A DNA stretch of 64,000 bases, taken from positions 32,001-96,000 of IMG/VR virus record IMGVR_UViG_3300028591_000085, one strand, 5' to 3'. The notes beneath the pieces were generated by a model, which saw only the letters and a program-made list of their open reading frames with translations, was not told the DNA's origin and made no database searches. The stretch comes from a virus. Taxonomy: Duplodnaviria; Caudoviricetes. The translations under genes and the position numbers were made by a program. Positions within the stretch are counted from its first letter, which is position 1; each line of letters begins with the position of its first letter. Of this stretch, positions 1-48,898 are shown piece after piece.

Positions 1-3000
1 AGGCTTCCGAATTTTTTATCCTTATCATTATAAGTATATTTATAATTATATCCACCATTATTATCTCTGGTTAATGTTCCTTTATATTTAACCTCATCAG
101 ACTTGTATCCATCACCGAAACCACCATATTGTCCATTATCAAATGACCAGGCTTTACCGGTTCTATTTACAATATCATTAAGTTTGTATTTCTTGTTATA
201 AGATTTTCCACGAGGATCACTTATATCAACGTTACCATTTGAATCAATACCAGTAGCAACTACATAATGTCCAGCGTCAGTATAAGGATCATCTCCCCTA
301 CCACCATAACGTCCATTACCAGATGCTCCTGAAAGAATCATAGGTTTACCACTCTTTAATTCAGATGAAATGAATTGAGAGCTAGGCATGAATTCTTCAG
401 TAGTATTAATACCATATGCATTTGAAGCATTATCTATAAAATTCCAATTTGTTCCAGTATCATCTCTGTCTCCAGTCATTTCAGCAAGTGCTGCTGTTTC
501 AGTAGGTAATACAGATTGACCGGTCATCTTGGATGCTATCATAGACATTGCGGTAGGACCACATCCGGTATCATCCATGGTCGCTCCATCATTACCATAC
601 TTATTTGAACTCCACGCAGAGTCAGACTGTGAGTAATACGGAACACCATTTACATCGTCAGGTCCTCTACCACCCTTAGGAAGTTTCTTTCGAGATTTAG
701 ACCCCTTACCATTACCTCCCCATAATGATGTGATGTTTTCAATGTAACCAGTAGTAGTATCCTTAACTTCATTCCAAATACCAGTAGCATGCTCTTTGAT
801 TCCTGAAATAAAGTTATTAATACCTTCAGCTATTCCATCGACAATTTTCGAAACAGTCGGGAATTTTTCGTGTATAGTTTCATATACAGACGACATAAAG
901 TCGCTTGCCTTATCAAAGAATTTGCTAGTTGCTTCTGTAGTTTTATTCCATAATTCTTTTGCTCTATCTTTAAAATTCTGAAGAGAATTTTTAGCAGTAT
1001 TTTTCAACGGAATCTTTTCTTTAGTTAATAAACCTAATTTTATCTTTTCATTAACTTCATCAGCATTTACTGTTTCGTCAATCAGGTCACCATTAGCATT
1101 ATAATGCTTATAAGTTTTACCATCAGCAACATAATAGCTACCATCAGACGGATCAAACCATCCATACTGATTTGTCAATTTAAGTATCCCTAAACCAGCT
1201 CCTGCTATAGGATTTATTAAACTAAACGCAGCAGTTACGCCCTCTCTAACTTTATAGAGAACTGAATCTCTATTGTTGAACATATCGGTCCATGCATTAG
1301 ATAATTTTTCTTTGAGCTTTGCGCCAGTTTCTTTAATCTTGGTGAAATCAAAATGAGAAGTAACATCCTTAATGAATATACCAGACTTAATAGACTGCTC
1401 AACTTCTTCGTCTGTTCTGGGATTTTCAAGAACTTCATCAGTTGCTGAATAGTAAACATATTTACCATTTTCGTTCTTATAATATGTACCATCACCAACT
1501 AAATACTTCTCATCAGTTGACATTATCTTTGATACAAGCCCGTTACCCTTACTAATAGCATCTGCTAATTTAGAACTTTTCCTGATATTATCTAATAATT
1601 TTTCACCTAAAGATGTTGCAATTTTAGCAGAATTTTCTTGATTTTCATCACGCTTTTTAAATAAACTTGACCAGGCCTCAGCAGCATCATTTAATATAGT
1701 ATGTGCTATAGCAGTAGTTTTACCCATTATTTTTATATTTGTCGCTTTTATTATTCCCTGTTGGATAAGACTTGTAAGTTCTTCATCTGTTATAGGTGGA
1801 ACTTCTTGATCATATCCATCTGCATCACATAATGACCATTTACCGTTACTAGATTCATGGTAATAATAGCCAGCATACTCGCCACTCAAAACTTGATATG
1901 CGGTAACCTTTCTTGATCCAATTAGTTTTCTACCATAATCTCCGCCAGTAAAGAAATCACCGACGCTTTTAATTTTATCACCAACTATTGATACTGCTTC
2001 ATCGGTAACACCTCTGATATGTCCACCTATTTTAGCAGCTTTTTCACCGACCTTATCGCCAATGGTCTTATTCTGTTCCAAGTTCCAATCATCAAATGAT
2101 TTATGTTTAATTACTTCATTATTTTCTTCAGCCCATTGTTTATATTCATCGACTGACATATTCTTATCAACTTTACCAGATTTTTTAGCTTCTTCTAGGG
2201 ATTTTTCAGTTTGCTCAAGAACATAACTGTTATATTCATCCATAAAATTAGTTTGAGCATCCTTTAATCTAGCTTCATCAGAATCACCGGCAAATAAATT
2301 ATATAATGCATTTGCAATGTTATGCCAGCCATTCCAACCACTTAATGTATTAATAATATCAAAGATAACATCAACTATTGCACCGATTGTAGTTCCTGAA
2401 AAACCTCCAAGAATTGCAGCAATTATTTCCATTCCAGTATCAACATCATCTTGACTTACTTGGAATAATTTAGCAGCACCAGCTTTTCCACCACGTGCTA
2501 TCATGCCTAATATGCCACCACCAACTTCAAATACAATGGTACCAACTCCAAGAGTTGCAGCACCTGTTGCAGTTTTAGCTTCAGCTTCAGCAGTTACCTT
2601 TTCGACCTGTCCGACTTCTTTCGGACCAAATTTTTCAACAGCCTCCTTAATAATTTTTTCAGCTTCATCAACCGACTTAGTGGTTCCTTTAGCACCTTTA
2701 TGTTTAACAAGATCCACTATCTTTTTAAAGAAATTTTTAATTGTTTCTTTAATTCTAGTAATCATATTTTTAAGAACACCACCGGCACCCTTTTCAGTCG
2801 ATGCTAATGATGCACTATTAATTTCAATATTTTTAGCATGTTTTAATACAGCTTTTTCATACTTAGCAGCTTGTTTACTTAATTTTTTAGATTTCTTAGT
2901 TAATTTGGCAGCTTCTTTTTCTAAGTCAGTTAATGTTTCAAGTCCTACCTTTTCTGCACCACGTCCAAAACTATGAGAGAATCCTGCCATCGCTGCTTTT

Positions 3001-6000
3001 TTTGACGCTTCCTTAGCTTCAGTTTCTGCAAGTTTTGCTGCTGCCTCAGCAGCAATTTTCTTTTCTAGTGCTTTAGCGCCCTTAGCAGTAGCATGTTCCA
3101 TACCTTTTGTACCAAGATAGTTTAATCCACCACTAACAGCTCTAAAACCAGATGCACTCTTAGGATTAAAAATATCAGCTGCAGAATGTATATTTGCACC
3201 TTTTGATAAAACTTTACCCACACCCTGAGCAGTACCACCAACTATTTTAGTTCCGACGGTTGGAATTACTGATGCTCCTTTTCCAACAACTTTCAGTGTA
3301 CCACCCATAACTGCAGCGGTACCTCTAATTGCACCAGGATGCATTAATAAATTAGCTTTAGCTTGAGAGTGAGAATCCCATTCACCGTCTTTATTAGTCA
3401 CAAATGTCATAGGAGCTGCTAATGGGTCATAATTTTCTCCAGGAAGTAGTTGTTTAGCTGCAGCAACACTATTTTGGGCTTCGTCTTTAATATTATCTAT
3501 ATTACTCTGCCCATTAGTATTTCTATCATTTTTATTGCCTAAGAAATTAATTACGTCGGCCACTTTATTTACTAGATCAGCTGCAACATCAGCAATTTTT
3601 ATAACAGCACTTGAAAATGCTTCCCAATTAATTTTTTTAACAAGTTCAGCTGTACCATCTGCAATTTTTGTTCCGATGAACCATATATTCTTTGCTAAAC
3701 TTGAAATACCATCTATATACGGTTTAAGACTACTATTTTCATATTTTTCTTTAATCCATCCAGTGAATCCCTTTTCTTTAATATCGTTAATAGCTTGAGT
3801 AGCACCCTGTGCCATTTCAGAAAAATACGATTCCCCAGTTTTCTGGTTAACAAAAATATTTTTAATCTTTTCACCTAAAGTTTCACCTATACCATCACCC
3901 TTTAAGAATGACCAGATATTTCCTAAGATTCCACCTAAAGGTGAAGAGGCTAACCATTTAAATGCTTTTATAAGAAAAGGAGAAGCAAGTATTAAAGCAG
4001 TTGCAAGTTTTCCTTTTCTACCAAAAACACTCTTCCATTCAGCAAAATGGTCACTTGCTCTCGATTTGATAACAGCAGTATTTTCCTTTATTGCTGTAAA
4101 TAACTTCTCTGTTCTATCTCTGGTTTGTTCAGCTATTCTATGAGCAAGTCGTTGACCTCCCTGATGCACATTACTAAGTGTGGACATGATCGGATTAGGG
4201 TCAATCGCTGCTGCTCCAGATTCAAAGCCTTTACCACCTCTAACAACACGTACAATAGGACCATGGCCGCCAAAATTTATTTTTCGTCTAGTACCATTTC
4301 CACCATTTGCTGTCGCAGAGGCATTATTTTCATTTATTAAACGTTCAAGCCTATCAAGTTTTTCAGAATCTCCTGTAAGCTCAAAATGTATAGTCTTAAT
4401 TCCGTGTTTAAGATCAACCTGTAATGTGTCAGAATCTTGCCGACTACATCCACTACATCTCTTTGCTAAATCTTCTAAAGAACCGATATCGTCAATTTCA
4501 ACAGTACTATTTTCTAATTCATCTAAATTTTCCAACGGATTATTAGTTTTACCATTATTGGACATCATCTTTTTCCTACCCTTATTTCTAAGAGAGGCTT
4601 CCGATTTTTTAGCTTTATTACGTAACTGCATTATTAAATTATTATCATCATAATTATCATAAGAGCTGACATCTTCCATATTCTCACTGAAATCAGCGTC
4701 TTCATCTTGATATCCTTTACTATATTTACTATAGCTATCTTTTAATCCAGCGGTTGAATCCATATTTCCTTCTTGCAATTTATTACCGTCCAAATCTATG
4801 AGTTCACCTTTAGTATTACGTAAAATACCGGTTTTTAAAACTCTATTAGCTACAGTAACTACAGTTTCGCCAGGATCAAGATATATAATTTTTTTAGATA
4901 ATAATTTAGTAAGTTTATCCTGTACTTGTTCTGCAATATTATCTGCTCTATAATCGTATATATATTTAGCATGACCTGATGTAAAGTTCAATATTCCTTC
5001 ATTAAATTTATGACGTAAAAATCCTTTTACACCACCATGCATTGATACTTCGTCACCAAAGAACCGTGATGATGCAGCCTTTGCTATAACTCCACCTTTA
5101 GTTTTAGCTTGTGCAAGTCTTAACTTAGTAGCACTAAACGCATAATCTAAACCACTATGATCGCCGGGAGTATTATCAATAGTATCTTTTACTTCACGTT
5201 CAACAGCATCATAATCAATATTACCAGTAGCATCTTTATGCTTATTGATAATTTCAGTGAGTTCGGTATATCCTTTTTCACGTTCAGCTTGACTTGTATT
5301 ACTAAATCTACGTTCAAGTTCTTTATCATTTTTATCAGAGAATCTGTCTGAATCATCATCATTGCCAGAAATCTTATCATATATTTTCTTTAATACATAA
5401 GCTATCTGAGCATTCTCACTAAGTTTTGAGAACGGTAATTTTACTATATCTTTAAATCCTTTACCGATTAATGAAATACCTTCAGTTTGCTCACGCGCTC
5501 TTCTAGTAAGTGCATCTTCGGTTTCAACCGTAGTATCAAGATATTTACTTGCCTTACCGCCACTCATTACTTTAGCCATATAACGAGCTTCAGCTGTATC
5601 AGACGAATATTGACCTTTAGTATATTTCTGAATTATTTTTGCGTTCTTATCACGAATTTTTTGTTCTTTATATTCTTTATTAATTTTAGCACGAGCTTCT
5701 TTTTGTTGTTTTCTACGCTCACGCCATCTTTCAGCTCTGGTCATACCATCAAGCTGTTCCTGAGTTCTACTTGTTGGTGCTGTAATACCAAATGCTTTAC
5801 CAAACTTAGTATTACTTAACCATTTCATACCTTTTTTAGCACCGTATACACCTAACTGTAATGCAGTACCAATACCTTTAAACGCAAGTTTAATAGGTGA
5901 AAATGCTAATTTAGTAAGACCAACAATTTGTCTACCTATTGATTTAATCTCAGTTTTAATAGTTCGCTTAAGCCAATCTTTTCCTGTATCTAAAGCTGCT

Positions 6001-9000
6001 TTAAGTTTACTATTACGCCATGCATCTGAAAGCTTATTATATACAGTAAATTGTATTGCTTTAATTAATTTAAACGGTGCAAGAAGTATATGTTGATTTA
6101 CTTCATAAGCTAGTTTAGCAGCTCCAGAAATGACTTTCTTAACGGGAGTTACTATAGTTTTATTAAGTATTTCAGCAAACGGTACTAAAATACTATTTTT
6201 AATAAATCCTGAAATATCATTTGCAACTTCATCAAATTTTGATTTAACTGCACCAACTACACCTCCAACTTTTTCAGAGATCGCCTCTGCCATAAATGAA
6301 AGTGAGTCACCAACAGTATATTCCAAATTAAGTGCAATTTGTTTACCCCAATATACAAACTGGGTCTTCAGAGGTCTTAAGAAGTTTGCATTAAGCATAT
6401 TTCCAATACGACCGAATAATCCATGCTTATGCTTCTTTTCACCAGTATATTCGTCTATATAATCTTCACCAAATAAGAATTTCTTAAATGCTGAACCATT
6501 TGCAGCAATAGAAGCACCGAGACCCATTAATGCACCAAACACAGGTCCACCAGGTAAAACAGCACTAGCTAAAGCACCACCTAAAATACCTAAACCTGAC
6601 ATTGAAAGAATCTTGGTGTCTTGGCTTAAATTAACACCTATAGAACCAGCAAACTTATCAGCGCCTTTTCTAAATGCATCTCTTATTCCAGGAAGTAATC
6701 CTTTTTGAGCAGTGTCAGGATTTCCGAATAAGAAGTTTTTCATTTTCTCAGATCTAGCCACTAACGTTGTAGCTATACCGAGACCAGCACCTACAATAGG
6801 ACCGCCCACAAGAGTGCCAAGAAGACCTCCACCTTTTCCAAAAAGGGAATGTGTCAGCATTCCGATTGCTCCACCACCAATGATGTCAAGCTTATGTTTC
6901 TTTAAATAATCTTGAGCGCCCTTGCTAATGAAACCACCAATACGGTCACCATTTTCATCTTTTTCGCCGAATAACCAATTTTGGAAAGATTCATTCTTAG
7001 CTAAAATACTACCAGCTATACCAAGACCTACACCTGTAATAGGACCACCAATGATAGAACCTAAAAGGCTCGAACCTGCAAATATACCAAAACCGGCACC
7101 TATAGCACCGCCAATAGTAGCATCCTTGGTATAACTATTCACTTTAGCTTGTACTTTTTTCTTTATATCTTCTTCACTCTGACCTTCAAGAGGTTCACCT
7201 ATAATTTTTTCTTTCCATGCATTAAGACCCTGACTAAAGAAATCTTTAAACTTGGAGAATAATCCACCTTTACGTTTACCAGTAGGATTTCCATTTTCAT
7301 CAAGTTCTTCAGGTCCAAATAATTTAGTCAAAATTCCTCGTTTAATTGTACCAAATACAGAATCTTTATTATCAGCATACTCAGTACCATCACTAGAAGT
7401 ATAACCTGTACCAACTAAAGTGTACCTTATATGTTTAAAAGTATCACCTAAGTAATTACGTACTTGAGACAATAAACCATTTTGGTAATTACCGTTTTCA
7501 TCTTTAACACCTAATATAGCTTCCTTAAGAGGATTAAATACATTATTTTTAAGACTAGTACCAATATCACTAGCACCAGACTTAAAAATTCTTTGAAACT
7601 CTTGTCCAACTAATCTAATATCAAGCGGACCAGACATAAGTCGATTCATGCTTCCTTTTAAGGTATCTACTGTATTAGTGAAAAAGCTACCAACTTTACC
7701 ACCATGAGTAGCTAACCATCCAGCTTTACTTGGGTCGCTTTGCTGAAGAGCATAGCTATAATCTCTGAGATTTGCAATACTCTTATTTTTAAGACTTTTT
7801 TTAATTTCAGTATTATATAATGATGAATTAGCGCGAAGCCATTCATCGTAATTCTCAATATGAGTATCTCCAGTTGCAAAATATCCAGACCTTATCGGAT
7901 CATTTTCTATTTCTGATAAGAACTTAGTTTGATCAGCTTGAGTACTTCTTAACTGAGCAGTTAATTGTCCAGCTATATCTTTATTTTGCTCTGAAATTTT
8001 TAATAGCTCTTTAACAACTAAATCAATATTCTTATCATTTTTTCCACCAGAAAAACTCTTGGCTTGTTTAATAGCTTCAACAAAAGCTTCATTACCCATA
8101 TCCAGACTTAAATGAGATCTTTGCTCAGCCATTGATTTGAGTAATTGCTTTGCTGTAATGATAAGAGCATCTCGTTCTTCTTTAGCTTTATCTTCTGTTT
8201 GAGATTTAGTAGCTTGGGTAAAAGCATTTTCGAGTTCTTTGAACATTCTTCCATTATACAGTGGCTCCATTATTTTATTAAGTGCAGCATCTGCATTAGA
8301 ACGTCTCTTATCTTTTACCTGTATATAACCCATAGTATTAAAATCAAACATTTCAGAATCGTCTTTAGCTGTTTTAGTTTTTTCAGATTCGAAATGTCCG
8401 CTAATTATTTTCAGATACTGGGTTTGTTCTCTAAGCTCCTTAGTGATAATTTCGGTAATAGCAAATTTAGTTTCTTTATCAAAACGAATCGGACTATTCT
8501 CAAATTCATCAATTGATAACGTATTTTTCCTATTAACTCTAACACCGAATGTTTGAGCAAGGAATTTTTTAAAGTGTCCACCAATATCATGTTCACCGAC
8601 TACTACATTTTCTCCATACTCTGCTAATCTATCCAATATGACTGGTACAAAATTTGAAAATGCCGTCTCAAGACTTTGCATAGTAGAACCAAATACCTTA
8701 CTCATTAAGGTAGAACTAACCATACTTGAAACCATGCCCAGAGGATTCTCAATAAACATCTCAATCAAACTATCATCAAGATTAACTATTTCACCAATAA
8801 AAGGAACTTCGCTTAATGCACGTTTTGCATTCTTCTTGATTACATTCTTATATCGTGATAATTCTATACCACCTTTAGTACGATCCCTTAATGCCGCTAA
8901 CGGGTCATCTTCATTTTTTAATATGGATGCACCATTATCTTCTCGTTTACCAACGGCTTCATAATACCCTATACTTTTTTGAATGAATTCCTTCATGGAT

Positions 9001-9560
9001 TCATTATTGAATTTTACAATAGATTCAAGAGAATTTGTTACATTCTTTAAGTGAGCGTCTATCATGCCATTCATTTTTTCAAGTTGCTGCATACTTACAG
9101 CATTCATTGAAATTTGGGCATCCATATTAGCTTTAGCAATTTTTACAGTTGCTTCACCTTGACGCTGTATATTTCTATTTAAATCGAGAACAGCATCTCT
9201 AGTACCGTTATCGACATTTATATTATAACTACCTTCACCTTCACCCACATCATCTGATCCAAATGTAATATCTGATGATTCATCATCATCAGCAAACATA
9301 CCCCCAAAACCAAAATCAGAGTCATGACCGGCTATGTTACCAGCTTTTATATCTTTCCATGAATTTTTGAGAGCTTGATATGAAGCCTGAACATATTTGT
9401 TCTGCTTCAATGATGTAGCAATCCTATTTGTAGTTGCTTTTGTCTGTCTTATAGATGTAATTATTGATTTTGTAGCATTAATGCCAGCTGACGTAACATC
9501 AGATATATTAGGATATAATTCACTAAAAGCTGATGACGTGCTAGCTCCTATACTCTTCAT
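1..9560 (-). CDS. Giant tape-measure-like tail protein (>3,180 aa, runs off left edge) with a C39-like papain-fold peptidase domain near the window edge
   Basis: Frame spot-checked as open at 9000, 6000, 3000, 1260-1410 and 3-130. Ala/Gly/Lys-rich helical and hydrophobic GxxxG segments; VPYYSQSD..W..GCGPTAM..GHYVVATG..DP at about 220-650. The RBS-bearing ATG at 9628 is out of frame (see findings); first in-frame ATG is 9560. Confidence 0.8.
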   Translation of the reverse strand, partial: MKSIGASTSSAFSELYPNISDVTSAGINATKSIITSIRQTKATTNRIATSLKQNKYVQASYQALKNSWKDIKAGNIAGHDSDFGFGGMFADDDESSDITFGSDDVGEGEGSYNINVDNGTRDAVLDLNRNIQRQGEATVKIAKANMDAQISMNAVSMQQLEKMNGMIDAHLKNVTNSLESIVKFNNESMKEFIQKSIGYYEAVGKREDNGASILKNEDDPLAALRDRTKGGIELSRYKNVIKKNAKRALSEVPFIGEIVNLDDSLIEMFIENPLGMVSSMVSSTLMSKVFGSTMQSLETAFSNFVPVILDRLAEYGENVVVGEHDIGGHFKKFLAQTFGVRVNRKNTLSIDEFENSPIRFDKETKFAITEIITKELREQTQYLKIISGHFESEKTKTAKDDSEMFDFNTMGYIQVKDKRRSNADAALNKIMEPLYNGRMFKELENAFTQATKSQTEDKAKEERDALIITAKQLLKSMAEQRSHLSLDMGNEAFVEAIKQAKSFSGGKNDKNIDLVVKELLKISEQNKDIAGQLTAQLRSTQADQTKFLSEIENDPIRSGYFATGDTHIENYDEWLRANSSLYNTEIKKSLKNKSIANLRDYSYALQQSDPSKAGWLATHGGKVGSFFTNTVDTLKGSMNRLMSGPLDIRLVGQEFQRIFKSGASDIGTSLKNNVFNPLKEAILGVKDENGNYQNGLLSQVRNYLGDTFKHIRYTLVGTGYTSSDGTEYADNKDSVFGTIKRGILTKLFGPEELDENGNPTGKRKGGLFSKFKDFFSQGLNAWKEKIIGEPLEGQSEEDIKKKVQAKVNSYTKDATIGGAIGAGFGIFAGSSLLGSIIGGPITGVGLGIAGSILAKNESFQNWLFGEKDENGDRIGGFISKGAQDYLKKHKLDIIGGGAIGMLTHSLFGKGGGLLGTLVGGPIVGAGLGIATTLVARSEKMKNFLFGNPDTAQKGLLPGIRDAFRKGADKFAGSIGVNLSQDTKILSMSGLGILGGALASAVLPGGPVFGALMGLGASIAANGSAFKKFLFGEDYIDEYTGEKKHKHGLFGRIGNMLNANFLRPLKTQFVYWGKQIALNLEYTVGDSLSFMAEAISEKVGGVVGAVKSKFDEVANDISGFIKNSILVPFAEILNKTIVTPVKKVISGAAKLAYEVNQHILLAPFKLIKAIQFTVYNKLSDAWRNSKLKAALDTGKDWLKRTIKTEIKSIGRQIVGLTKLAFSPIKLAFKGIGTALQLGVYGAKKGMKWLSNTKFGKAFGITAPTSRTQEQLDGMTRAERWRERRKQQKEARAKINKEYKEQKIRDKNAKIIQKYTKGQYSSDTAEARYMAKVMSGGKASKYLDTTVETEDALTRRAREQTEGISLIGKGFKDIVKLPFSKLSENAQIAYVLKKIYDKISGNDDDSDRFSDKNDKELERRFSNTSQAEREKGYTELTEIINKHKDATGNIDYDAVEREVKDTIDNTPGDHSGLDYAFSATKLRLAQAKTKGGVIAKAASSRFFGDEVSMHGGVKGFLRHKFNEGILNFTSGHAKYIYDYRADNIAEQVQDKLTKLLSKKIIYLDPGETVVTVANRVLKTGILRNTKGELIDLDGNKLQEGNMDSTAGLKDSYSKYSKGYQDEDADFSENMEDVSSYDNYDDNNLIMQLRNKAKKSEASLRNKGRKKMMSNNGKTNNPLENLDELENSTVEIDDIGSLEDLAKRCSGCSRQDSDTLQVDLKHGIKTIHFELTGDSEKLDRLERLINENNASATANGGNGTRRKINFGGHGPIVRVVRGGKGFESGAAAIDPNPIMSTLSNVHQGGQRLAHRIAEQTRDRTEKLFTAIKENTAVIKSRASDHFAEWKSVFGRKGKLATALILASPFLIKAFKWLASSPLGGILGNIWSFLKGDGIGETLGEKIKNIFVNQKTGESYFSEMAQGATQAINDIKEKGFTGWIKEKYENSSLKPYIDGISSLAKNIWFIGTKIADGTAELVKKINWEAFSSAVIKIADVAADLVNKVADVINFLGNKNDRNTNGQSNIDNIKDEAQNSVAAAKQLLPGENYDPLAAPMTFVTNKDGEWDSHSQAKANLLMHPGAIRGTAAVMGGTLKVVGKGASVIPTVGTKIVGGTAQGVGKVLSKGANIHSAADIFNPKSASGFRAVSGGLNYLGTKGMEHATAKGAKALEKKIAAEAAAKLAETEAKEASKKAAMAGFSHSFGRGAEKVGLETLTDLEKEAAKLTKKSKKLSKQAAKYEKAVLKHAKNIEINSASLASTEKGAGGVLKNMITRIKETIKNFFKKIVDLVKHKGAKGTTKSVDEAEKIIKEAVEKFGPKEVGQVEKVTAEAEAKTATGAATLGVGTIVFEVGGGILGMIARGGKAGAAKLFQVSQDDVDTGMEIIAAILGGFSGTTIGAIVDVIFDIINTLSGWNGWHNIANALYNLFAGDSDEARLKDAQTNFMDEYNSYVLEQTEKSLEEAKKSGKVDKNMSVDEYKQWAEENNEVIKHKSFDDWNLEQNKTIGDKVGEKAAKIGGHIRGVTDEAVSIVGDKIKSVGDFFTGGDYGRKLIGSRKVTAYQVLSGEYAGYYYHESSNGKWSLCDADGYDQEVPPITDEELTSLIQQGIIKATNIKIMGKTTAIAHTILNDAAEAWSSLFKKRDENQENSAKIATSLGEKLLDNIRKSSKLADAISKGNGLVSKIMSTDEKYLVGDGTYYKNENGKYVYYSATDEVLENPRTDEEVEQSIKSGIFIKDVTSHFDFTKIKETGAKLKEKLSNAWTDMFNNRDSVLYKVREGVTAAFSLINPIAGAGLGILKLTNQYGWFDPSDGSYYVADGKTYKHYNANGDLIDETVNADEVNEKIKLGLLTKEKIPLKNTAKNSLQNFKDRAKELWNKTTEATSKFFDKASDFMSSVYETIHEKFPTVSKIVDGIAEGINNFISGIKEHATGIWNEVKDTTTGYIENITSLWGGNGKGSKSRKKLPKGGRGPDDVNGVPYYSQSDSAWSSNKYGNDGATMDDTGCGPTAMSMIASKMTGQSVLPTETAALAEMTGDRDDTGTNWNFIDNASNAYGINTTEEFMPSSQFISSELKSGKPMILSGASGNGRYGGRGDDPYTDAGHYVVATGIDSNGNVDISDPRGKSYNKKYKLNDIVNRTGKAWSFDNGQYGGFGDGYKSDEVKYKGTLTRDNNGGYNYKYTYNDKDKKFGS

Positions 9561-10556: not shown

Positions 10557-10588
10557 CCGTAAAGTCGGTTTTTTCGATGATATACTAT
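10557..10588 (+). promoter_or_regulatory. Early-type promoter (CCGTAAAGTC-N10-ATGATATACTAT)
   Basis: Same arrangement recurs on the minus strand near 51846-51877 and 53789-53820. Confidence 0.65.
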
Positions 10589-10606
10589 TTATGTGCCATA
10601 ATGATA

Positions 10607-10687
10607 TTGTCAATAATATCATTACCAACTTACGCATTCCGATTGATGGAAAGTAAGACGTAAGGTTTCGTGTAATGATTGAGACAA
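10607..10687 (+). ncRNA. Conserved structured 5' leader motif, copy A
   Basis: Core CAACTTACG CATTCC GATTGAT GGAA AGTAAGA CGTAAGG TTTCG inside outer stem atcattac/gtaatgat; five copies in window. Confidence 0.75.
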
Positions 10688-10712
10688 AATAAATTTTAAA
10701 GGAGGAATCATT

Positions 10713-11066
10713 ATGACAAAAATCGTAAACCTCACTCCCCACATGGTAACCATCATGGGCGAGGGCAACAAGTTTGCCCTCAATATCGAGCCATCTGGCA
10801 AGTTGGCTCGTGTATCCGCTACGACCGTAGTCGTAGGTGAGATAGAGGTGAGGACCGACATACGGACGACGTTTAAGGTACCCATAACGACAACCCGTTA
10901 CGGGGAGGTTGAGGGACTCCCCGATCCCGCGCCTGATACTATCTACGTAGTATCCTCCCTTGTCGCGGGACGTGTCCCCGACAGGGAGGATGTTTTCATC
11001 CCGAACGAGTCCGTTCGGGATGACGAGGGGAGGATCATCGGATGCCGTTCCCTCGGCCACATCTGA
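10713..11066 (+). CDS. NLTPH-family small protein; possible Crn4-like cyclic-oligoadenylate ring nuclease
   Basis: GGAGG RBS; motifs NLTPH, PSG..ARV, GLP, YVVS..VA, R.D..P, VRD..G.IIGC; GC much higher than flanks. Crn4 link is from memory and unverified. Confidence 0.55.
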   Translation: MTKIVNLTPHMVTIMGEGNKFALNIEPSGKLARVSATTVVVGEIEVRTDIRTTFKVPITTTRYGEVEGLPDPAPDTIYVVSSLVAGRVPDREDVFIPNESVRDDEGRIIGCRSLGHI

Positions 11067-11074
11067 TGACCTAA

Positions 11075-11410
11075 ACCACATGAAAGGAGGTGATTAACAT
11101 GTGGAATTAATTAGCACCCATCCCCAAAGGGTGAACGTGGTTTCTATACTGACACGTAAAAAAGTATAGCGTTGATAGTTTCGTAAAACTATAGATATCC
11201 GTCATACTTTGTATGGTCCAGAGCTCGCTAGTGGGAGTAACTGGTGAAAAGGAAGAAAGAAGTAATACTATGCGAGTTAGTATTATGAGCGCTCACTAGA
11301 AATGCCGAACATCTTGGGGTGGAAGATACGTATAAGAATCAGAAATGTACGGCGCATTTCTGTTACATAACTAAAAATAAGTTGAAGTTCTCGCATCAAC
11401 TTATTTTTTT
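11075..11410 (+). ncRNA. Unannotated highly structured RNA (about 335 nt, multiple hairpins and pseudoknots)
   Basis: No long ORF; at least 8 hairpins and 3-4 loop-to-distal complementarities; ends in a terminator. Confidence 0.65.
11373..11410 (+). terminator. Intrinsic terminator
   Basis: aaaaataagttga/tcaacttattttt plus T-run. Confidence 0.75.
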
Positions 11411-11463
11411 ATAATTTTTTATATAATCAAATTTACTCATTCGTATTTTGTTTTTTTGTATAT

Positions 11464-11472
11464 ATATATTAT
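11464..11472 (+). promoter_or_regulatory. Early-type promoter motif
   Basis: ATATATTAT just upstream of leader copy B. Confidence 0.55.
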
Positions 11473-11494
11473 TTATTTAGTCATATTGATAATA

Positions 11495-11570
11495 TACCAA
11501 TAGAACTATACCAACTTATGCATTCCTAATAGAGGATATTAGTCATAAGGTGTCGAGTATAGTTATGGTA
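11495..11570 (+). ncRNA. Conserved structured 5' leader motif, copy B
   Basis: CAACTTATG CATTCC TAATAGA GGAT ATTAGT CATAAGG TGTCG; outer stem aactatac/gtatagtt. Confidence 0.75.
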
Positions 11571-11594
11571 AATAAAAAATAAGGAGGTATCATT

Positions 11595-11903
11595 ATGACT
11601 GATAAGAACATATTCGAAATAGCCTCAAACGATGCTGAGGCTAACCAACTCATGGAGAAGGTTTTTTATGCATCAAAAACCTTCAACGACACTCTGTTCT
11701 CGATCAAATATTTGATCGAGAACAGATACAATAATAAAGCTCCTGGATCAATGATTGAGCTGCTCTATCAGCTCAAAGGTATGGCAGAAAAGTTAATAGT
11801 ATCTGCCGAAATCATTTCCGACTTCGGTCATATGCTGGCCGAAGTCAAGGCTTTGAGCGAAAATGATTCAGTCGAAGCTGAGGAAGCTAAGACTGAGGGC
11901 TAA
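11595..11903 (+). CDS. Hypothetical helical protein (cassette cargo)
   Basis: AAGGAGGT RBS, 102 aa, own promoter, leader and terminator. Confidence 0.8.
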   Translation: MTDKNIFEIASNDAEANQLMEKVFYASKTFNDTLFSIKYLIENRYNNKAPGSMIELLYQLKGMAEKLIVSAEIISDFGHMLAEVKALSENDSVEAEEAKTEG

Positions 11904-11908: not shown

Positions 11909-11956
11909 AAGGACTCCCCGAACAATCTGGTGTTCGTTCGGGGAGTCTTTTTTTTT
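11909..11956 (+). terminator. Intrinsic terminator between convergent genes
   Basis: ggactccccgaac/gttcggggagtc plus T9. Confidence 0.8.
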
Positions 11957-14900
11957 AATCTTTTTTGTCATAAATTTCTTTTAAGCTTCTTTTTAATTCT
12001 ATAATGCATTTATTACCAAGTGCTGTTAACAATATACTCGGTGTCATACGTTTTAAAATACTATTAGAAGCTATTATTGTACTAACTTCTTCTTCGGGTC
12101 TATAACTACTCCAGGGTTCATATCCTGCAGGAATTATTTCACCAATGGTATTCTTAAGAGCAGTAAAATTGGCTATCTTGGAGCCAACTTCTAGAGGTTC
12201 AGAGTGTTTTACATAGAACTCTATAAGTACTCCACCCTCTTCAATTTTTTCTCCTTTAATAACACCAAATTTATTGGGTTCAATTTTTTTACTTGTTTCA
12301 TTAACAAGTAAACCACATTTAACTATACTACCAGCTGAGTCCGGATCATACTTTTCTAAGAACTTTTTCTTAGAATTTATAGTACTATAATAATTACTTA
12401 CAATCTTTCTTAATGAAGGTGAAAGCTCATCAAGTTCAACTGTAGAATATATCTTAATTTCTTCAATTACTCCTGAATATTTGGAATGAATGTCATTCCT
12501 ACTCCCTTCAAGAATAGTAGATTGTTCCTCTTGACTAAGATTTGCAAGTAAAGTATTCAATGAATTATCTTCAAATGAAGTATCAAATTGAATCAAGCTG
12601 TCTCCTACTTTTATTTCTTGACCTTTTTTAACCATATATTCAACGTTAGCATTTTTACCAATTACAACACTCTTTAAGAAACACATCTCTGTTGCAGCTT
12701 CATCTGATAATTTTTCAGTTATCATTGTAGCATCTTGATAAGTGTTATAAGTAGACATGATTGCAACTTTAGTAAGTGTTCCCATGTTCATTCTGCAATT
12801 ATTAAACTTATCATTGGTAAAGAAGTCTTTATGATAAGCTAATACAGAATCTTTCTTAAACTTATCTCCAACTTTTAATGTAGTAATTAATTGGTTACTC
12901 AAGAAGAAACCACCGCCACCATTTTTAACAATAGTATGACCTAGGTTAACAGCTTGACATTTCCCAGAGTTATATTTAACTATCATTATATCATCTTTAT
13001 AATCTACTACAATACCATCTTCAGCAGCATTGACAGCAAAGTCTGATGATAATTGGAAACGACAAACTTCTTCCATACCATTAGATATTAATACAGGGGA
13101 TGATTTCTTTACAGGAATAGTATGTTTAGATTGTTTTAATGCGTGTCCAAGACGAGTAGGGTCATCATTAGTAGCACCTAAAGGTATAGTTAATTCAGCA
13201 GGTGAGAATACATCTACATCGTGTAACGTATCCAATTTTTCATTTTTTGAATCAACGTAATTTAAATCAACATATCCACGTAACGACGTTATTGAAGGAT
13301 TAAACGTAAGAGTCTTGCTTACACCACAAGAACCGTCAGGAGATGTTGACGGTGATATAACACCTATCGAGGTCTTATCAAAAGTTCTTTTAGGAACTGT
13401 ATAAGATTCATCAAGGTTAGCACCTCTAAATCCTTTACTAGAAATACCACGGAACATTTCCATTTCAAGTGTTGGATTAAGTGTGGAATAATCTTCAACA
13501 GTTTTTAATGCAATAAGTTCTTTTATTACACAATCCTGAGGTACTGAATATGCTTTTTTACCGTTACTATTTCTATATAAAATATATTTCTTAGCAAGAC
13601 GCTCATAAAGAATAGCAGGTATTATTTCATTACATCTAATTCTTGATAGTCCCTGATTTATTTCAGGAGTATATTGAGAATCAGATAATAATGATACAGC
13701 GTATATGATTATCTCTATTAAGTCATAAGGAATATTAATATCTTTACATACTTCCACAGTTATGGGGTCCATCATAAATTCATACACGTTAAGTAATGCA
13801 TTTGCAATTGCAGCTTTACCCCAAACTTTTATTAAATATGGCATATATGGTTCTTTAGTATCCATTTCAGAGATTTTATAATTCTGAGTATCTAAGAATC
13901 TGTATCCATTTATTAATAAATCAATACCAACTGTAGATTCGTATACAAGATAGCAATCTGCAAATCTTAAATAGCTTTCATTAGGTTTAAGCTCAGGAAA
14001 CTTATCGTCAAGTCTATATTTAACTTTTCCTTTTTTAAGTAATGATGATAAACCTTCCCAAAATCCCAATAATAAACCAACAGCAACATACTGTTCAAGA
14101 ACTTTTGCTCTGGTATACATAAGTCTCTTAGGAGCTCTAGTAGATTCATATACATGTTTTTCTTCATCAGATAAAGCATTTAACATAATATAAACTATGG
14201 TATCATTATTATCAGTTTTTTGAGTTTCCTCATTTATATAAATAGGAGAACCGCTTTTATCTAAACCAATAAAGATATATCCTTTCTTCATGGGTATATC
14301 TCTTTTTTTAGCAAATTCTATTGCTTCATTCTGGTTAAATAAAATTTCAGTCTTTCCTTTTTTAAACTTTATCGCAATCTTAGAAAGTTCATCATACTCT
14401 ACTGTAGTAATAAACTTATTGTTTATTGAGATACAGTTTCCATATGTAAAGTATTTCTTTATTTCATCTGACTTTTTCAATACAGTTTTAAGTCTTTCTA
14501 TAGATGATAAAGATTTAGTTCCAACTCGTTCAATAAACATCTTATTGTAGTTAGTTGTTAACTGAACTATATTTGAACTAGTCTTCACAACTGGATATAA
14601 TAAGTTTTGTTTTTTGATAACTTTTCTATTGCCACCTATATAAATAAATTTATCTTCTATAAATTTAGGTATATCAACCTTAATTGTATGACGTTTTCTA
14701 TTAGTATCTTCAAGATAAATAGTATATGTATCTTTATAATTTAACTCATCAGACGAATCTTGAATTTTTATATCTCTAACAAACATGGGAAGAGACTTAT
14801 TATTTAATGAAAGAATTGCATCAGTTATATCTTTCGGCATTAATTTTTCATTATATTCCTTATCAAAATTATCAAATTTCAGTTGCGTCACATTTTTATT

Positions 14901-16307
14901 ACTTGTTCTAACAGATGCCGATACATCGTGAGTAGGTATTTGGATATGAGAAGCTTGAATTTTCTCAATTTCTTTGATTGTCATTCCTTTTATTTTAAGA
15001 TCAGCTTGCGCTTTCCTAAGTTCTTCATCTCTTGCTGTTGATGCAGTCTTCTTAGGAACAACGGGTGAAATCACTTCATCATAAATTGTATTTAATAATT
15101 CTTTATCAGAATCTATGTCATTTTCCAATTTAGTCTGTACTGCTGTTTTTATATTATCGGATGTTAAACTCTTAGTATATGCATCCGGAGCAATCTTCTC
15201 AACTTCATTTCTTATCGCAACAGCTTTTGCTCTAATTGCATTATAAACTTTATCACTACCAGTTATAACTTTTCTATCACCAAGAGTAGATTTTGAAACA
15301 GTGGGTCTTTCAACCTTATTTGACGATGGTTTATATGTTGCTTTAGATTCATCTTGTTTAACTTCATCTAAAGATGTTATAATAGTATTATTTTTAGTAT
15401 TATTAATACTATTATTCAATTCACCAATAGTATTTTCAACAGCTTCATCCTTCTTAATCTGCTCTTCATTAACTGCGTCATTAAAGAATGATACATTTGA
15501 ATATAGTCTATTCATTTCTCTACGGAAAATTGTATATGTTTTCTTATCACAATTATATGGATTGAACTTTAAGCTCTTTTTATCAGTAAACATATAGAAA
15601 TCAATATTTAATGCTGTAATCATATCAGGATATTTAAGTAATGTATAGTATAGCATAAAGACAGGATTTGTCATATTCTCTTTCAAATTTTTATACATAG
15701 GATAATTTGAAACATCAATTAAAACAAATCTATTTTGATATGCTGTCAGATTAGGAGCAAATAATATACTTCTTAAATAATCCCAGTACATTTTAATCTT
15801 TCTAACTGGTGAAATTTTTTCACACAGTGTTAAAAAGATATTCATATGCTTTGATAAATCATAGTATAGATTCCTATCATCTTTACCATCAATAGCAAGT
15901 TTTATATAAGGATGAATTTTATTTTGTGATTTTGACAATACCTTTTTATATAATTCTTTACGTAAATCAAGCTCACGTATTCTAAATGTTTTTCCATACA
16001 ATTTACCACTATACATCGGGTTATAATAGTAATAGAAATATTTATTTGCATTGACAAAGTTTATGGTATTTGTCATTAAATTAAGAGATTCATCTGTATT
16101 ATTGGTATATAAAAAACAAAGGTTTCCTCTATTCCCATTAGTACCTTTAGGTAACGTAATTTTTTTATTTATTAATTTTAAATATGGTACATTATCAGGG
16201 TAAACTGCTTCCATCATTACATCATTTTCGCTATCAATATCTGTAACAACTTCAGTCATGAGTTCTTCTTCCTGTTTACCATTTATAACATCGAAAAATA
16301 AACTCAA
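11955..16307 (-). CDS. Phage multisubunit RNA polymerase beta-type subunit (probably virion RNAP)
   Basis: STSPDGSCGV (ETPEGxNxG-like), HALKQSKHTIP (NMQRQAVP-like), TYQDA, GSKIANFTALKNTIG (GDK...KG-like), ILKRMTPS; about 480-aa N-terminal extension. Confidence 0.88.
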   Translation of the reverse strand: MSLFFDVINGKQEEELMTEVVTDIDSENDVMMEAVYPDNVPYLKLINKKITLPKGTNGNRGNLCFLYTNNTDESLNLMTNTINFVNANKYFYYYYNPMYSGKLYGKTFRIRELDLRKELYKKVLSKSQNKIHPYIKLAIDGKDDRNLYYDLSKHMNIFLTLCEKISPVRKIKMYWDYLRSILFAPNLTAYQNRFVLIDVSNYPMYKNLKENMTNPVFMLYYTLLKYPDMITALNIDFYMFTDKKSLKFNPYNCDKKTYTIFRREMNRLYSNVSFFNDAVNEEQIKKDEAVENTIGELNNSINNTKNNTIITSLDEVKQDESKATYKPSSNKVERPTVSKSTLGDRKVITGSDKVYNAIRAKAVAIRNEVEKIAPDAYTKSLTSDNIKTAVQTKLENDIDSDKELLNTIYDEVISPVVPKKTASTARDEELRKAQADLKIKGMTIKEIEKIQASHIQIPTHDVSASVRTSNKNVTQLKFDNFDKEYNEKLMPKDITDAILSLNNKSLPMFVRDIKIQDSSDELNYKDTYTIYLEDTNRKRHTIKVDIPKFIEDKFIYIGGNRKVIKKQNLLYPVVKTSSNIVQLTTNYNKMFIERVGTKSLSSIERLKTVLKKSDEIKKYFTYGNCISINNKFITTVEYDELSKIAIKFKKGKTEILFNQNEAIEFAKKRDIPMKKGYIFIGLDKSGSPIYINEETQKTDNNDTIVYIMLNALSDEEKHVYESTRAPKRLMYTRAKVLEQYVAVGLLLGFWEGLSSLLKKGKVKYRLDDKFPELKPNESYLRFADCYLVYESTVGIDLLINGYRFLDTQNYKISEMDTKEPYMPYLIKVWGKAAIANALLNVYEFMMDPITVEVCKDINIPYDLIEIIIYAVSLLSDSQYTPEINQGLSRIRCNEIIPAILYERLAKKYILYRNSNGKKAYSVPQDCVIKELIALKTVEDYSTLNPTLEMEMFRGISSKGFRGANLDESYTVPKRTFDKTSIGVISPSTSPDGSCGVSKTLTFNPSITSLRGYVDLNYVDSKNEKLDTLHDVDVFSPAELTIPLGATNDDPTRLGHALKQSKHTIPVKKSSPVLISNGMEEVCRFQLSSDFAVNAAEDGIVVDYKDDIMIVKYNSGKCQAVNLGHTIVKNGGGGFFLSNQLITTLKVGDKFKKDSVLAYHKDFFTNDKFNNCRMNMGTLTKVAIMSTYNTYQDATMITEKLSDEAATEMCFLKSVVIGKNANVEYMVKKGQEIKVGDSLIQFDTSFEDNSLNTLLANLSQEEQSTILEGSRNDIHSKYSGVIEEIKIYSTVELDELSPSLRKIVSNYYSTINSKKKFLEKYDPDSAGSIVKCGLLVNETSKKIEPNKFGVIKGEKIEEGGVLIEFYVKHSEPLEVGSKIANFTALKNTIGEIIPAGYEPWSSYRPEEEVSTIIASNSILKRMTPSILLTALGNKCIIELKRSLKEIYDKKD

Positions 16308-34426: not shown

Positions 34427-34485
34427 ATGATAACCTCCTTAAAATTCATTGGTTATATATATGTGTAAATGATGAAAAATGAATT

Positions 34486-34494
34486 ATACATCAT
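34486..34494 (+). promoter_or_regulatory. Early-type promoter motif
   Basis: ATACATCAT just upstream of leader copy C. Confidence 0.45.
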
Positions 34495-34501
34495 TATATT
34501 G

Positions 34502-34575
34502 TAATTATTATGAAGTCTACTTATGCATTCCTAATAGAGGAAAGTAAGACATAAGGTGTCGACTTTATAGAATTA
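34502..34575 (+). ncRNA. Conserved structured 5' leader motif, copy C
   Basis: CTACTTATG CATTCC TAATAGA GGAA AGTAAGA CATAAGG TGTCG; outer stem tatgaagtc/gactttata. Confidence 0.75.
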
Positions 34576-34603: not shown

Positions 34604-35464
34604 ATGTATCAGATTATCGAAAAAAATAACACTGCTACCACAATGTCCTCATCCTCGTTGTCGTCGACTGCAATTGTTAAAATTGCAGATAAGATTGGCT
34701 CTGCTAGAACAGCAGAAGCCGCTGAATATAAAGACCGGAGGGTATCTATATACGCCCCATCAATTGGGCGCATAAAAGATGCGCTGACATCAAAAGACAA
34801 ATTTGTCGTGCTCTACGATATGGACGAAGATTTGTATCGGAGACACACTAATGAGGAGGTGATTCGAGCGGTTCACCTCTATTTCCTATCTGTAGATTCA
34901 TCTACTGAGAGGAGGCATCGTGATGCGATGCGACAAGTGGAAATTGCCGTAAGAAATGATTTATCTTACGGCAACGAAAATTATGCCAGGTATTACGAGA
35001 AGTATAAAGAATACTTCAATAAATGCTTGGACAGAGGTATAGAAGCTTTACATATAATCGAGTTTCTTGCGATAGAAAAACAATATCGCAAGAAATTAGT
35101 CCTATACCGAAAAATTAAAATGAGAGTAAAAGTCATATCAATATTGTTATTAACAGTATTGATAGGACTGTTAGTTTTCGGTATAGGACGAGCGATAACT
35201 CGTCCGACTGAAGAACAACGATTACTCTCAGACGGGATGACTGCAGAAATCATTCAGATAAATCCTCGGGATTTAGACCGGGTGTCATTCCCGGGAGTAT
35301 TAGATTACATACGTGTAAAATACCCGTATACCATGAAATATTATTCAGAAAAGGAGGTGATCTCCAATATCGGAGATTTATCCGGAAAGATCAACATTTG
35401 TGCTGAGGTAGAAGAAGGCTCTGTCCAGTACATACCTGTGCGGGTAGTACACCCGATTAAGTAA
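34604..35464 (+). CDS. Membrane protein with C-terminal degenerate LysM-like domain (cassette cargo)
   Basis: TM helix VISILLLTVLIGLLVFGIG; C-terminus IQINPRD...EVISNIGDLS...VEEGSVQYIPV. Confidence 0.6.
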   Translation: MYQIIEKNNTATTMSSSSLSSTAIVKIADKIGSARTAEAAEYKDRRVSIYAPSIGRIKDALTSKDKFVVLYDMDEDLYRRHTNEEVIRAVHLYFLSVDSSTERRHRDAMRQVEIAVRNDLSYGNENYARYYEKYKEYFNKCLDRGIEALHIIEFLAIEKQYRKKLVLYRKIKMRVKVISILLLTVLIGLLVFGIGRAITRPTEEQRLLSDGMTAEIIQINPRDLDRVSFPGVLDYIRVKYPYTMKYYSEKEVISNIGDLSGKINICAEVEEGSVQYIPVRVVHPIK

Positions 35465-36251: not shown

Positions 36252-39200
36252 ATGAGTTTAGATTATTTAAATCCAATGGCAAATTTATATAATGAATTTC
36301 TAAAGATATTAAATAATATAGTTATTAAATACACATCTAAAGCTATAGCATGTGAAACTGAAGAGGAACGAAGAGATGCTGAATCATATATGGATGCTAT
36401 AGAAAAGACTGATACATTTGATACATATGCTGAATTCACTGATGATGAATTAGTTGAAGTTGGTATATATGATTATAATATGAGAAAAAAATGTGTTGCG
36501 GATAAATCAAATATTCCGTTTGATAATTATAATGCTGAAACTGGTGAAGGAACTAGTTATAGACATGATTTAGTAGAACTTCGCCGTAAAGAAATAATTG
36601 AAAATTATGTAGAAAAAAATAAGTACTATAGAACATTGAATGGATTACCTGAGCTAAACACTAATCCTGAGTTTTTTGATTATGTCCCGGGTATGATAGC
36701 AGTTCAATGTGGTATACCTTTTGAAGATTTAATATTCGATACTCCGTTTTTGAGAGAATCCGATCTTGAGAGAATGACCTTTGAAGAATTAACAATACCT
36801 GAAGATATGGATGAATTTAATATGTTGCTTAGTAATTATGCTAAATATCGTACTGATTATACAGATTATGCATATAAATATATAATTGAAGATGGAAGGT
36901 TCGTACCTATTGAAAATCTTCATACACGATATGCTGGTAAAACTGTTAAGTTATTAACAAATCTTGGAGATATGGATTTGAACACAGTGACTAATTCAGT
37001 TTATCCTATTCATGAAATTCAAGACCATTATAATAATTTAGATCCTGATTTTCCTGATATGGGAGATCAGATAATGTCTAAATTAGAAGGTATTGGTTTT
37101 ATTGAAAAATTAAAAAAAAATCCTAAAATGTTTGGCATTACTATAAATCCTGACACGGGTGAAGAAATAGAAGACCCTAATAAAATACTTATATACGGAG
37201 GTGCTCTATCTGGTCCCGCTGTGGCTCTTACAGATAAAGCAAAACGGAGAATTTCTAAAAACTCTGGAGTTACTAATTTTTCAAATGTTATAAGAATATC
37301 TGATGATAATAATCCAATAACAGGATATGGGGATAATATCAATATATATTATTCAGTGTCGATTGCTACTACATTTGCTGGTATGAATTTAATTCCCGGT
37401 GACCATATTATGTCAACTGGAATTGGATGGGAAAAAATTTCTATTGAAGAAAAAAGACGTGATGGAGTTAATAGAGAATATCTTAATTTTTTAGGTTCTC
37501 GAAGAATAAGTATAACAAATGCTAGAAAAGCTAAAAATTTTTCAATTCTGCGCTTGGATAAAAATATTGTCAATACGAATATATATGAAGCGTTTATTTC
37601 GATATATGAAGAGTGCAGAGATTATATGACCGTCGTAGTATATCAATATAATTTTTCTGAGTTTATTGCGTATTACGATAATTTCATCGCAATGTGTATC
37701 ATGTTAATGGCTGAGATGCATTTGATAGTACAACAGATACCGTTTGAAATAAGAAGAAATTTCTTTGATCCTTATGCGATACGTATGCTTTATGAAGCAT
37801 ATGATATTCCTTACGATATATATGTCGATATTGAAACTCAGAATATAATTGCTAAAAATTTGAATCTTATAATTCTTCATAAAGCTACTGATAAAGTATT
37901 TTATGATATTTCGCATTTATTAGGATTCAAGAATATCCAAGTATATAAATATTATTTAGCGAAGCAACATCAGTTTGACCCGTGGGGTAATCCGGTATTT
38001 AGTACTAAACAAAAATTCAATAATGATACCGGTAAACTTGAAACGGTTGATGATTATGATTTAATGTATGATATCTATTTTCAAAAAGAAGAACTTAGAG
38101 AAAAAGATTTTATACGAACTTTTAATACATCAGTAAATAAGGTTGATTATCACAGCGTAACATCTGGTGACCCTTATTGGTGGGAAGATCAACATGTTGT
38201 TGATATGAAGAATAAATCTGAGTATAATTTTGTTGAAAGTAAGTATCTTGGACTTACAATGTCATATAAAATGACTGAAGTAATGTTTGAGAATATAGTT
38301 CTTCTCAAAGCATTATTATATTATAGGAAAGAACTTAGAGAGATAAGTGTGAATCTTTCAAGAATTATGTCAGGCGCGTCAGTATCTATCTTTGATGCGA
38401 TAATATTACTTCTTGCTATGATGAGTAGTGTACATCGTCTTAAAGGTGAGATTATTACAGTACCATCTGATATTGTAAATGTATTAGATTATCTCAATAA
38501 TATGGGAGCAAGTAATCATGTTGGAGAATATGATTCATTTGCTTTTGATTTTGATTTCTTTAAAAAAGATATCAATGGTGAAAGTAAATCTGATGCATTA
38601 GTAGAAAGAGTTAAACGCGCTCTTAGTAAAAGAGTGAAAGGTTATATAGTTGATGATACAACGTTTGAAGAAAAACAACAATATATTCTTGATTATTGCA
38701 TGAGGACTGGTGCAACTCCTCCTGTTGATATGAATAATCGCGAAATTATTGAAGAAGATTATTACGAGATATATCAACCTAATTATTACGTATATGACAA
38801 TCCCCCGTATTATACTTTATATTCGGGTGCTATCAAAACATATAAACGTAATACTTATGGTAATGCTAAAACGAAACAAGTTGTTCCTGATAACTTTAAA
38901 AACTTTGATCCTGAAACGATGGTCCACAAATCCGATGTACGTCAAGATATCTTTGATGTTAGATTATACGAATACGTTTCAGAAAACAAAGAGACAGTTG
39001 TTCAAAGGAATGTAGACGCGTTTAAGGTTGAGAATATGCTTAAACGTGGTGAGCTTAAAGAAATCCAAATAGATCATCATGATATTGATGTAGATACATT
39101 TGAAAAATATCTTTCCGTTCTTTCATTTAGTAGTGAGAAAACTCGTGCTGAAAAAATTGAAACATTCAATCTTATATATAGAAATATAAGAAATCTTTAT

Positions 39201-48883: not shown

Positions 48884-48898
48884 TGGAGGTGATGAAAT

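Follow-up and report, generated by a model that had tools for sequence, protein, structure and literature searches.

The DNA analysed here, referred to as the window, is a stretch of 64,000 nucleotides (positions 32,001 to 96,000 of IMG/VR record IMGVR_UViG_3300028591_000085) from the 203-kb genome of an uncultured jumbo phage. The phage is a distant relative of AR9 and PBS1 and has its own multisubunit RNA polymerase, whose beta subunit shares about 30% identity with its counterparts in PBS1, S6, LPJP1 and phiR1-37. In jumbo phages of the AR9/PBS1 group the early genes are transcribed by a polymerase that is injected. Several very large reading frames occupy the window, including one of more than 3186 codons and unknown function at 3-9560 (minus strand), a 1450-aa RNA polymerase beta-like protein at 11955-16307 (minus) and a 1603-aa virion structural protein at 36252-41063 (plus); a topoisomerase II gene pair lies at 46409-51289. 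Scattered among the window's genes are five copies of a structured leader element, each lying between a predicted early promoter and a gene. These features are listed below, with scores from R1, a covariance model that was constructed from eight aligned copies and covers the inner two stems and the closing pair.

10579-10595, plus strand: predicted early promoter of copy 1, matching the AR9 consensus (box 10579-10588, 6-nt spacer, +1 G at 10595)
10597-10605, plus strand: S1 of copy 1, a 5'-terminal segment complementary to the start-codon region (9 bp, -10.0 kcal/mol)
10607-10687, plus strand: copy 1 hairpin (P0-P1-P2-P3; model core 10619-10677, 73.2 bits)
10707-10715, plus strand: S1', the partner of S1 in copy 1, containing the ATG at 10713-10715
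10713-11066, plus strand: gene of copy 1, a 117-aa ORF
11463-11479, plus strand: predicted early promoter of copy 2, from box to +1 (11479)
11480-11491, plus strand: S1 of copy 2, pairing with 11588-11599 (-13.3 kcal/mol)
11495-11570, plus strand: copy 2 hairpin (model core 11505-11562, 74.9 bits)
11588-11599, plus strand: S1' of copy 2, containing the ATG at 11595-11597
11595-11903, plus strand: gene of copy 2, a 102-aa ORF
34485-34501, plus strand: predicted early promoter of copy 3, from box to +1
34502-34575, plus strand: copy 3 hairpin, starting at the predicted +1 (34501; model core 34510-34568, 71.9 bits)
34604-35464, plus strand: gene of copy 3
51700-51840, minus strand: a second, different leader element
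53470-53649, minus strand: gene of copy 4 (59 aa)
53704-53768, minus strand: copy 4 hairpin (model core 53707-53765, 75.8 bits)
53769-53798, minus strand: predicted promoter and 5' segment of copy 4 (box 53789-53798, +1 at 53782)
59246-59740, minus strand: gene of copy 5
59769-59842, minus strand: copy 5 hairpin, the most divergent (model core 59775-59835, 64.9 bits)
59865-59881, minus strand: predicted early promoter of copy 5 (box 59872-59881, +1 at 59865)

A first-pass annotation of the window had described these five hairpins, and their coordinates and strands are all correct. It spoke of five copies, and all five are real, but the genome as a whole contains ten. A degenerate pattern applied to the 203-kb genome returned the five known sites and one extra, with none in the reversed control; simple regular-expression searches revealed two further copies; and R1 recovered two that lie outside its training set, at genome positions 141430-141489 and 136166-136223, both on the minus strand. 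The copies score 55-78 bits in the R1 scan of the genome (E values of 1e-11 to 1e-17), and the best match that is not a copy reaches only 11.6 bits with an E value of about 10. The two untrained copies bring new compensatory inner stems, CCTACG/CGTGGG and CTTATG/CATGAG. A single strict-pattern scan of the metagenome collection identified 14 loci with 19 further R1 matches at 59-76 bits; some of the contigs that carry the motif are from near-identical strains (94-97%) and others are as distant as the relative G001 described below (65-80%). Two other sites in the genome, both outside the window, are noted: a partial look-alike at 100756 is not recognised by R1 and was treated as a chance match, and at 127207 (minus strand) there is a divergent copy of the long type, which has an inner stem of only 4 bp (CCTG/CAGG) and an insertion of 13 nt. 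As R1 misses this last copy, the family is wider than the model.

The placement of the element is constant: in 29 of 29 copies it is sense to the gene and lies between the predicted early promoter and the ribosome binding site, as the first-pass annotation had it. The conserved structured unit lies 0-30 nt downstream of the predicted start site, within the 5' untranslated region. The early virion-polymerase promoter of AR9, as outlined in the published account, consists of an AT-rich box ending in TATATTAT, six bases and a G at +1 (PMC5312081). The promoters predicted for the copies have the corresponding features (a TATATTAT-type box, a 6-nt spacer and a purine start), and a box of the form TATA[TC]A..AT-N6-R is present at the correct distance in nine of the ten genomic copies and in most of the metagenomic ones; the same box expression also recovers the published promoter class in PBS1. 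All start sites referred to here follow from this promoter rule. We note that the promoter consensus, equivalent to the virion-polymerase class of AR9, is found genome-wide, at the five window sites and about 35 others. About 40 promoter-plus-ORF units are predicted, and those without the motif mostly have short untranslated regions.

The element is, on well supported grounds, a long irregular hairpin on the sense strand of early leaders. From the outside inwards it consists of a variable outer stem, a conserved asymmetric AA/GNNUC internal loop, a covarying 6-bp stem, a second conserved asymmetric loop (CA/AGUAAGA), and a 5-bp stem closed by a pentaloop. Single-sequence folds of the copies agree on this architecture, and each of the window copies forms the three-stem hairpin that had been proposed for it, with z scores of -1.9 to -3.9. 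The element is longer than first described: the hairpin stands as it was given, but many copies have in addition an outermost stem of 3 bp (P0), which encloses a conserved 3x3 loop and leads into an A/U-rich linker with a strong Shine-Dalgarno (SD) sequence after it, and the 5' end of the leader can pair with the start-codon region, as discussed below. The unpaired loop nucleotides are better conserved than the stems, and the outer stems diverge freely. Inspection of the loops against the definitions of the K-turn, sarcin-ricin loop, hairpin ribozyme and boxB shows that the defining nucleotides do not fit, and a three-codon mini-ORF seen in T variants of the inner stem was dismissed, being absent from the C variants.

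Alignment A5, with 29 rows and 24 distinct sequences, provides the main evidence for the fold. Standard pairs make up 96.9% of its paired cells, compared with 34-56% when the 3' partners are slid as a control; double changes occur at six of the 12 pairs, and no shuffle reaches the observed covariation score. The inner stem is paired in all 24 distinct sequences while its pairs vary (CG in 15 and UA in 9; UA in 16, UG in 5 and CG in 3; CG in 22 and UA in 2), and in copy 5 it is TTTACG/CGTAAA, with a U-A closing pair and two U-G wobbles in the outer stem. Covariation of the apical stem, also proposed in the first-pass annotation, holds for copy 5 (ATCC/GGAT) but not for copy 2, in which TTCC/GGAT leaves a U-U mismatch; copy 4 retains its apical stem through a register slip of one base. 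The outer stem is copy-specific and yet paired, with a mean of -9.8 kcal/mol for cognate flanks and -3.8 kcal/mol for flanks of other types; there are about 12 outer-stem sequence types, and the cognate flank is the best partner in most rows. Even the leaders of orthologous genes in different phages (the pairs c6/m7 and c11/m11) have different outer stems that still pair. Compensatory changes are present in every stem. The independent substitutions behind them are modest in number, since a single phage clade is the source of all of the copies.

The distribution of wobble pairs indicates which strand is folded, since a G-U wobble on the sense strand is a C-A mismatch on the opposite one. In P2 and P3 there are about 13 wobble cells and a single C-A cell, the latter accounted for by the register slip in copy 4, and we conclude that the folded strand is the sense strand, as the first-pass annotation had suggested. 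Whole-hairpin folding energies of the sense and antisense strands do not discriminate between them (12 of 23), and the assignment is based on the wobble counts together with context. These same observations bear on the idea that the element acts as DNA, in the form of an operator, a recombination site or a miniature transposon. The arms of the inner stem are indeed inverted repeats, and the element is dispersed in the genome, but what distinguishes the copies of one genome are compensatory changes and G-U wobbles, the latter being mismatches in DNA and on the opposite strand; the outer arms are unique to each copy, the orientation is always sense to the gene, and there are neither target-site duplications nor terminal repeats; we regard a DNA-level role as the least credible of the readings considered here.

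The genes that follow the element are unrelated to each other, as had been noted. The ten genomic proteins have no pairwise similarity, and 27 readable downstream ORFs from all copies fall into 17 clusters. None of the ten matches Pfam or NCBIfam, and the copy 1 product is the only one with a PHROG match, to families of unknown function (phrog_30542, phrog_21731). The copy 1 gene (10713-11066, plus strand) is also far more GC-rich than the genome, and in contig L060 it has an orthologue with 61% identity; we considered whether L060 carries a replacement gene behind the same leader and dropped this idea, as the gene in question is that orthologue. Between the copy 1 gene and its terminator lie about 300 nt of non-coding DNA (11067-11410, plus strand), 86.5% conserved in L060. 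The accessory character of the genes is borne out by comparison with G001, which has a homologue for none of the ten motif genes and for 17 of the 33 other predicted early genes (Fisher p=0.003). With no fewer than 17 unrelated ORFan families behind it, the element is a marker of the early accessory genes in a clade of uncultured rumen and gut phages.

The cassettes are monocistronic, each with its own terminator, and promoter, leader, linker, SD sequence and start context are conserved together. Whole cassettes are gained and lost as units between relatives: the copy 4 cassette is missing from contig L062, and contig L057 has an extra cassette beside copy 2, with its boundaries in the T-runs of two terminators. 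At the positional counterpart of copy 11 in G001, the promoter has been kept and the leader is different.

The closest IMG/VR relatives were located through the topoisomerase gene, and among them is G001 (250 kb), which is 85% identical at the amino-acid level and 65-80% identical at the nucleotide level across 37% of the genome. R1 has no significant match in the sister contigs G001-G004, and a weak match in G002 (13.8 bits) does not resemble the motif. There is a shorter variant, however, in at least nine early leaders, each of about 170 nt, of G001 (L035, L039-L041) and two related contigs (L108 and L109/L111). It is a long hairpin starting at +1, with a covarying closing pair (C-G or U-A), and it keeps the AA/GNNUC loop and a CUU...AAG stem that is capped directly by the pentaloop, without P3 and the bulge. 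The apical stem and the 7-nt bulge are thus dispensable, and the asymmetric AA/GNNUC junction is the constant, being the only part common to the long type and the short variant of the sister lineage.

A second leader element is found just upstream of ribosome binding sites, where it forms a pseudoknot-like structure with a GGG/CCC-type stem crossed by a CUUUAUU/AAUAAAG-type stem. Besides the window copy at 51700-51840, it is present at genome positions 173909 (plus strand) and 127102 (minus strand), downstream of copy 8, and in about nine G001 leaders. It often stands in tandem behind the first motif or behind another long hairpin, of a third kind, whose first base is at +1; in G001 the short variant is followed by the pseudoknot-like element, and the same tandem is seen in copy 8 and its orthologue.

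Both variants have a stem of 4-5 bp capped by a pentaloop, and the element lies shortly after early start sites, which might bring to mind an RNA signal of the nut/boxB or put kind that modifies elongation or termination by the virion RNA polymerase. Against this, the cassettes are monocistronic and have their own terminators, and on inspection the pentaloop is not GNRA-like and there is no boxA-like element; we consider this explanation very improbable.

When the leaders are folded in full, from the inferred +1 as far as the start codon, a further feature emerges. All 12 leaders of the main (P0) subtype have a minimum-energy fold in which their first 9-12 nt form a helix with the region of the start codon, and this 5'-end:AUG helix encloses both the hairpin and the SD sequence. 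The helix occurs in three covarying versions, with -11.5 kcal/mol for same-type and -5.6 kcal/mol for cross-type pairings, these values having been scored by per-sequence energies since MAFFT sets the three types out of register. Copies 3, 4, 5, 10 and 11 lack the helix or have local hairpins in its place, and it is thus not a universal feature. Compared with other predicted early leaders, those with the motif have a higher predicted cost of opening the SD sequence (6.7 and 3.6 kcal/mol, p=0.0007) and the AUG (4.9 and 3.6 kcal/mol, p=0.03), with the length of the untranslated region confounding both comparisons. At the inferred starts, the 5' end is paired (at least two of the first three nucleotides) in seven of nine motif leaders and in 12 of 33 other early leaders.

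Copies 1, 4 and 8 carry, just after +1, a repeat of the outer stem's 3' arm (for example at 53769-53782, minus strand, and 10597-10608, plus strand), so that a competing 5' hairpin of near-equal stability is possible. This raises the idea of a riboswitch or other ligand switch, in which the conserved loops would form a pocket and the outer stem a switching helix in competition with the AUG-masking 5' segment. A variable P1 with conserved junctions is what such a switch would lead one to expect, and in these three copies the 5' arm of P1 is a possible partner for the 5' segment, which in copy 1 has the AUG region as an alternative. But the competing pairing, found in copies 1, 4 and 8 and their orthologues, is missing from most other copies and is no conserved trait of the family, the short variant is merely a 4-bp hairpin plus loop, the cargo genes have no common pathway, and the element is confined to one phage clade and lacks an Rfam relative. 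A ligand switch therefore seems to us quite improbable.

We give rather more weight, while still thinking it unlikely, to cleavage by host RNase III of the interrupted helix of about 23 bp, which would remove the AUG-masking 5' segment or generate a stable processed 5' end. The helix totals about two turns, has internal loops, as do phage RNase III sites such as those of T7 and SP82, in which these loops are conserved, and sits in an early leader; moreover, cleavage would free the AUG in the 12 leaders in which it is masked by the 5' arm. Against this, the enzyme does not require sequence-specific conservation of loops, the short variant keeps the junction loop in a quite different helix geometry, SPO1 is without an R1 match, and no gene for an RNase III or a dsRBD protein was found in the phage.

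It is similarly doubtful, and to us a shade more so, that the element is a passive 5'-terminal stabiliser or insulator with no partner, copied along with its promoter and perhaps providing homology for cassette shuffling as the PeSL elements do. Pairing of the 5' end at or near +1 in most copies, the coming and going of whole cassettes with lineage-specific cargo, and the joint conservation of promoter, leader, linker, SD sequence and start context are all consistent with it. Against it, the loops are more conserved than the stems while the outer stems diverge, and a sister lineage with 65-80% nucleotide identity has retained the junction loop although the remaining hairpin has been rebuilt; and the one indel boundary examined lies in terminator T-runs, outside the motif.

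No known RNA family accounts for the element, in agreement with the first-pass annotation: Rfam 15 gives no matches when the window is scanned at gathering scores, and three copies searched at E<=10 return only chance miRNA and sRNA matches that lie elsewhere in the loci. A tRNA/tmRNA scan yielded nothing, comparison of the leader with GenBank phages by megablast and blastn gave chance matches of 27-31 nt, and two IMG/VR pattern scans for the long type produced either nothing or chance matches to the apical stem alone. R1 has no significant match in PBS1, LPJP1, SA1, phiR1-37, S6 or SPO1. A relaxed pattern applied to 185,579 prokaryote genomes (one per species) returned 20 matches, none of them confirmed by R1, which indicates that at that stringency there is neither a host copy nor mimicry of a CRISPR repeat. 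As an RNA family the element is new, although its kind, that of phage early-leader hairpins, is familiar; so far the family is restricted to one clade of uncultured AR9-like phages.

Our preferred interpretation, which we hold with about even confidence, is that the element is a cis-acting module for post-transcriptional control and stabilisation of early accessory cassettes, recognised by a putative trans-acting factor. The fold would bury the 5' end and so shield the message from 5'-end-dependent decay, and it would keep the initiation region structured. The AA/GNNUC junction would be the docking site for a putative trans-acting protein, of phage or host origin, which on docking may tune translation or decay of all of the early accessory cassettes together; promoter, leader and ribosome binding site would also constitute a portable expression module for newly acquired ORFans. 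The conserved loops could alternatively serve tertiary folding or ligand binding. A more specific version, in which the leader is a sensor or operator and a dedicated phage RNA-binding regulator or a small-molecule signal docks on AA/GNNUC and opens or locks the 5'-end:AUG helix, thereby switching the early accessory genes, strikes us as speculative and on balance unlikely. Were it true, it would imply a post-transcriptional regulon specific to virion-polymerase transcripts, with lineage-specific pairs of RNA and partner (long and short), and the genes so switched might be involved in counter-defence. The rivals to the preferred control-module interpretation are, in order of probability, RNase III processing, the passive stabiliser or shuffling module, the ligand switch and the polymerase-directed signal.

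To our knowledge almost nothing is known of the post-transcriptional control of early messages in the AR9/PBS1 group. The element offers a defined RNA, supported by covariation, with clear mutational targets in the junction loop, the outer stem and the 5'-end:AUG helix, and regulation of the early accessory gene set thereby becomes testable. R1 provides a means of annotating early cassettes in jumbo-phage contigs from metagenomes, and the leader may be of use as a compact portable 5' UTR module.

The first-pass annotation had pointed to the SP82/SPO1 leaders and the PeSL cassettes as analogues, and the analogy is one of function only and does not extend to relatedness, as R1 has no match in SPO1 and the element is not a terminator-promoter composite. 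RNase III hairpins, such as the T7 R sites, the SP82 and SPO1 Bs-RNase III sites and the lambda N leader, are likewise repeated, sequence-related and interrupted, and lie in early transcripts, here those of a large virulent phage; both they and the element described here have conserved internal loops, and both could unmask or stabilise a downstream message. The differences are that the SPO1 genome has no R1 match at E<=5, that the RNase III hairpins lie between cistrons whereas ours are 5' leaders of monocistronic cassettes, and that the transcripts here are predicted to come from the phage virion polymerase.

The PeSL elements of T4-like phages are also short, conserved regulatory modules flanking lineage-specific ORFans of variable regions, with cassettes that are gained and lost whole (PMC2839356, PMC4122927). 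A PeSL joins a terminator stem-loop to a sigma-70 early promoter and provides homology at the level of DNA (PMC2839356, PMC4122927), whereas in our element the conserved part comes after the promoter and its covariation is that of an RNA, the terminators upstream of promoters are not conserved between cassettes, and the one indel boundary that we examined is within terminator T-runs. At the 5' end, the closest parallels are the stem-loop stabilisers of E. coli ompA and B. subtilis aprE and of model leaders, in which the helix is likewise at or within 2-3 nt of the terminus; few unpaired 5' nucleotides are present at our inferred starts too, and the short-type hairpins of G001 start at +1. Those stabilisers need no conserved loop sequence and belong to single genes, while the element here is a dispersed family. 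The masking hairpins of T4 genes e, soc and I-TevI share with it the pairing of an upstream segment of the early transcript with the initiation region; in T4 the masking is relieved by a second, late promoter inside the hairpin, and we identified none in our element. From the phage group itself, the early transcripts of AR9 are described as having long 5' untranslated regions with a predicted shared motif, unnamed and unexplained in that account (PMC5312081, Fig. S3), and this motif belongs to the same phage group and promoter class as the element reported here. Insofar as that description allows comparison, the two appear to differ, for R1 finds nothing in PBS1, a near twin of AR9, and by eye the PBS1 early leaders have no such hairpin.
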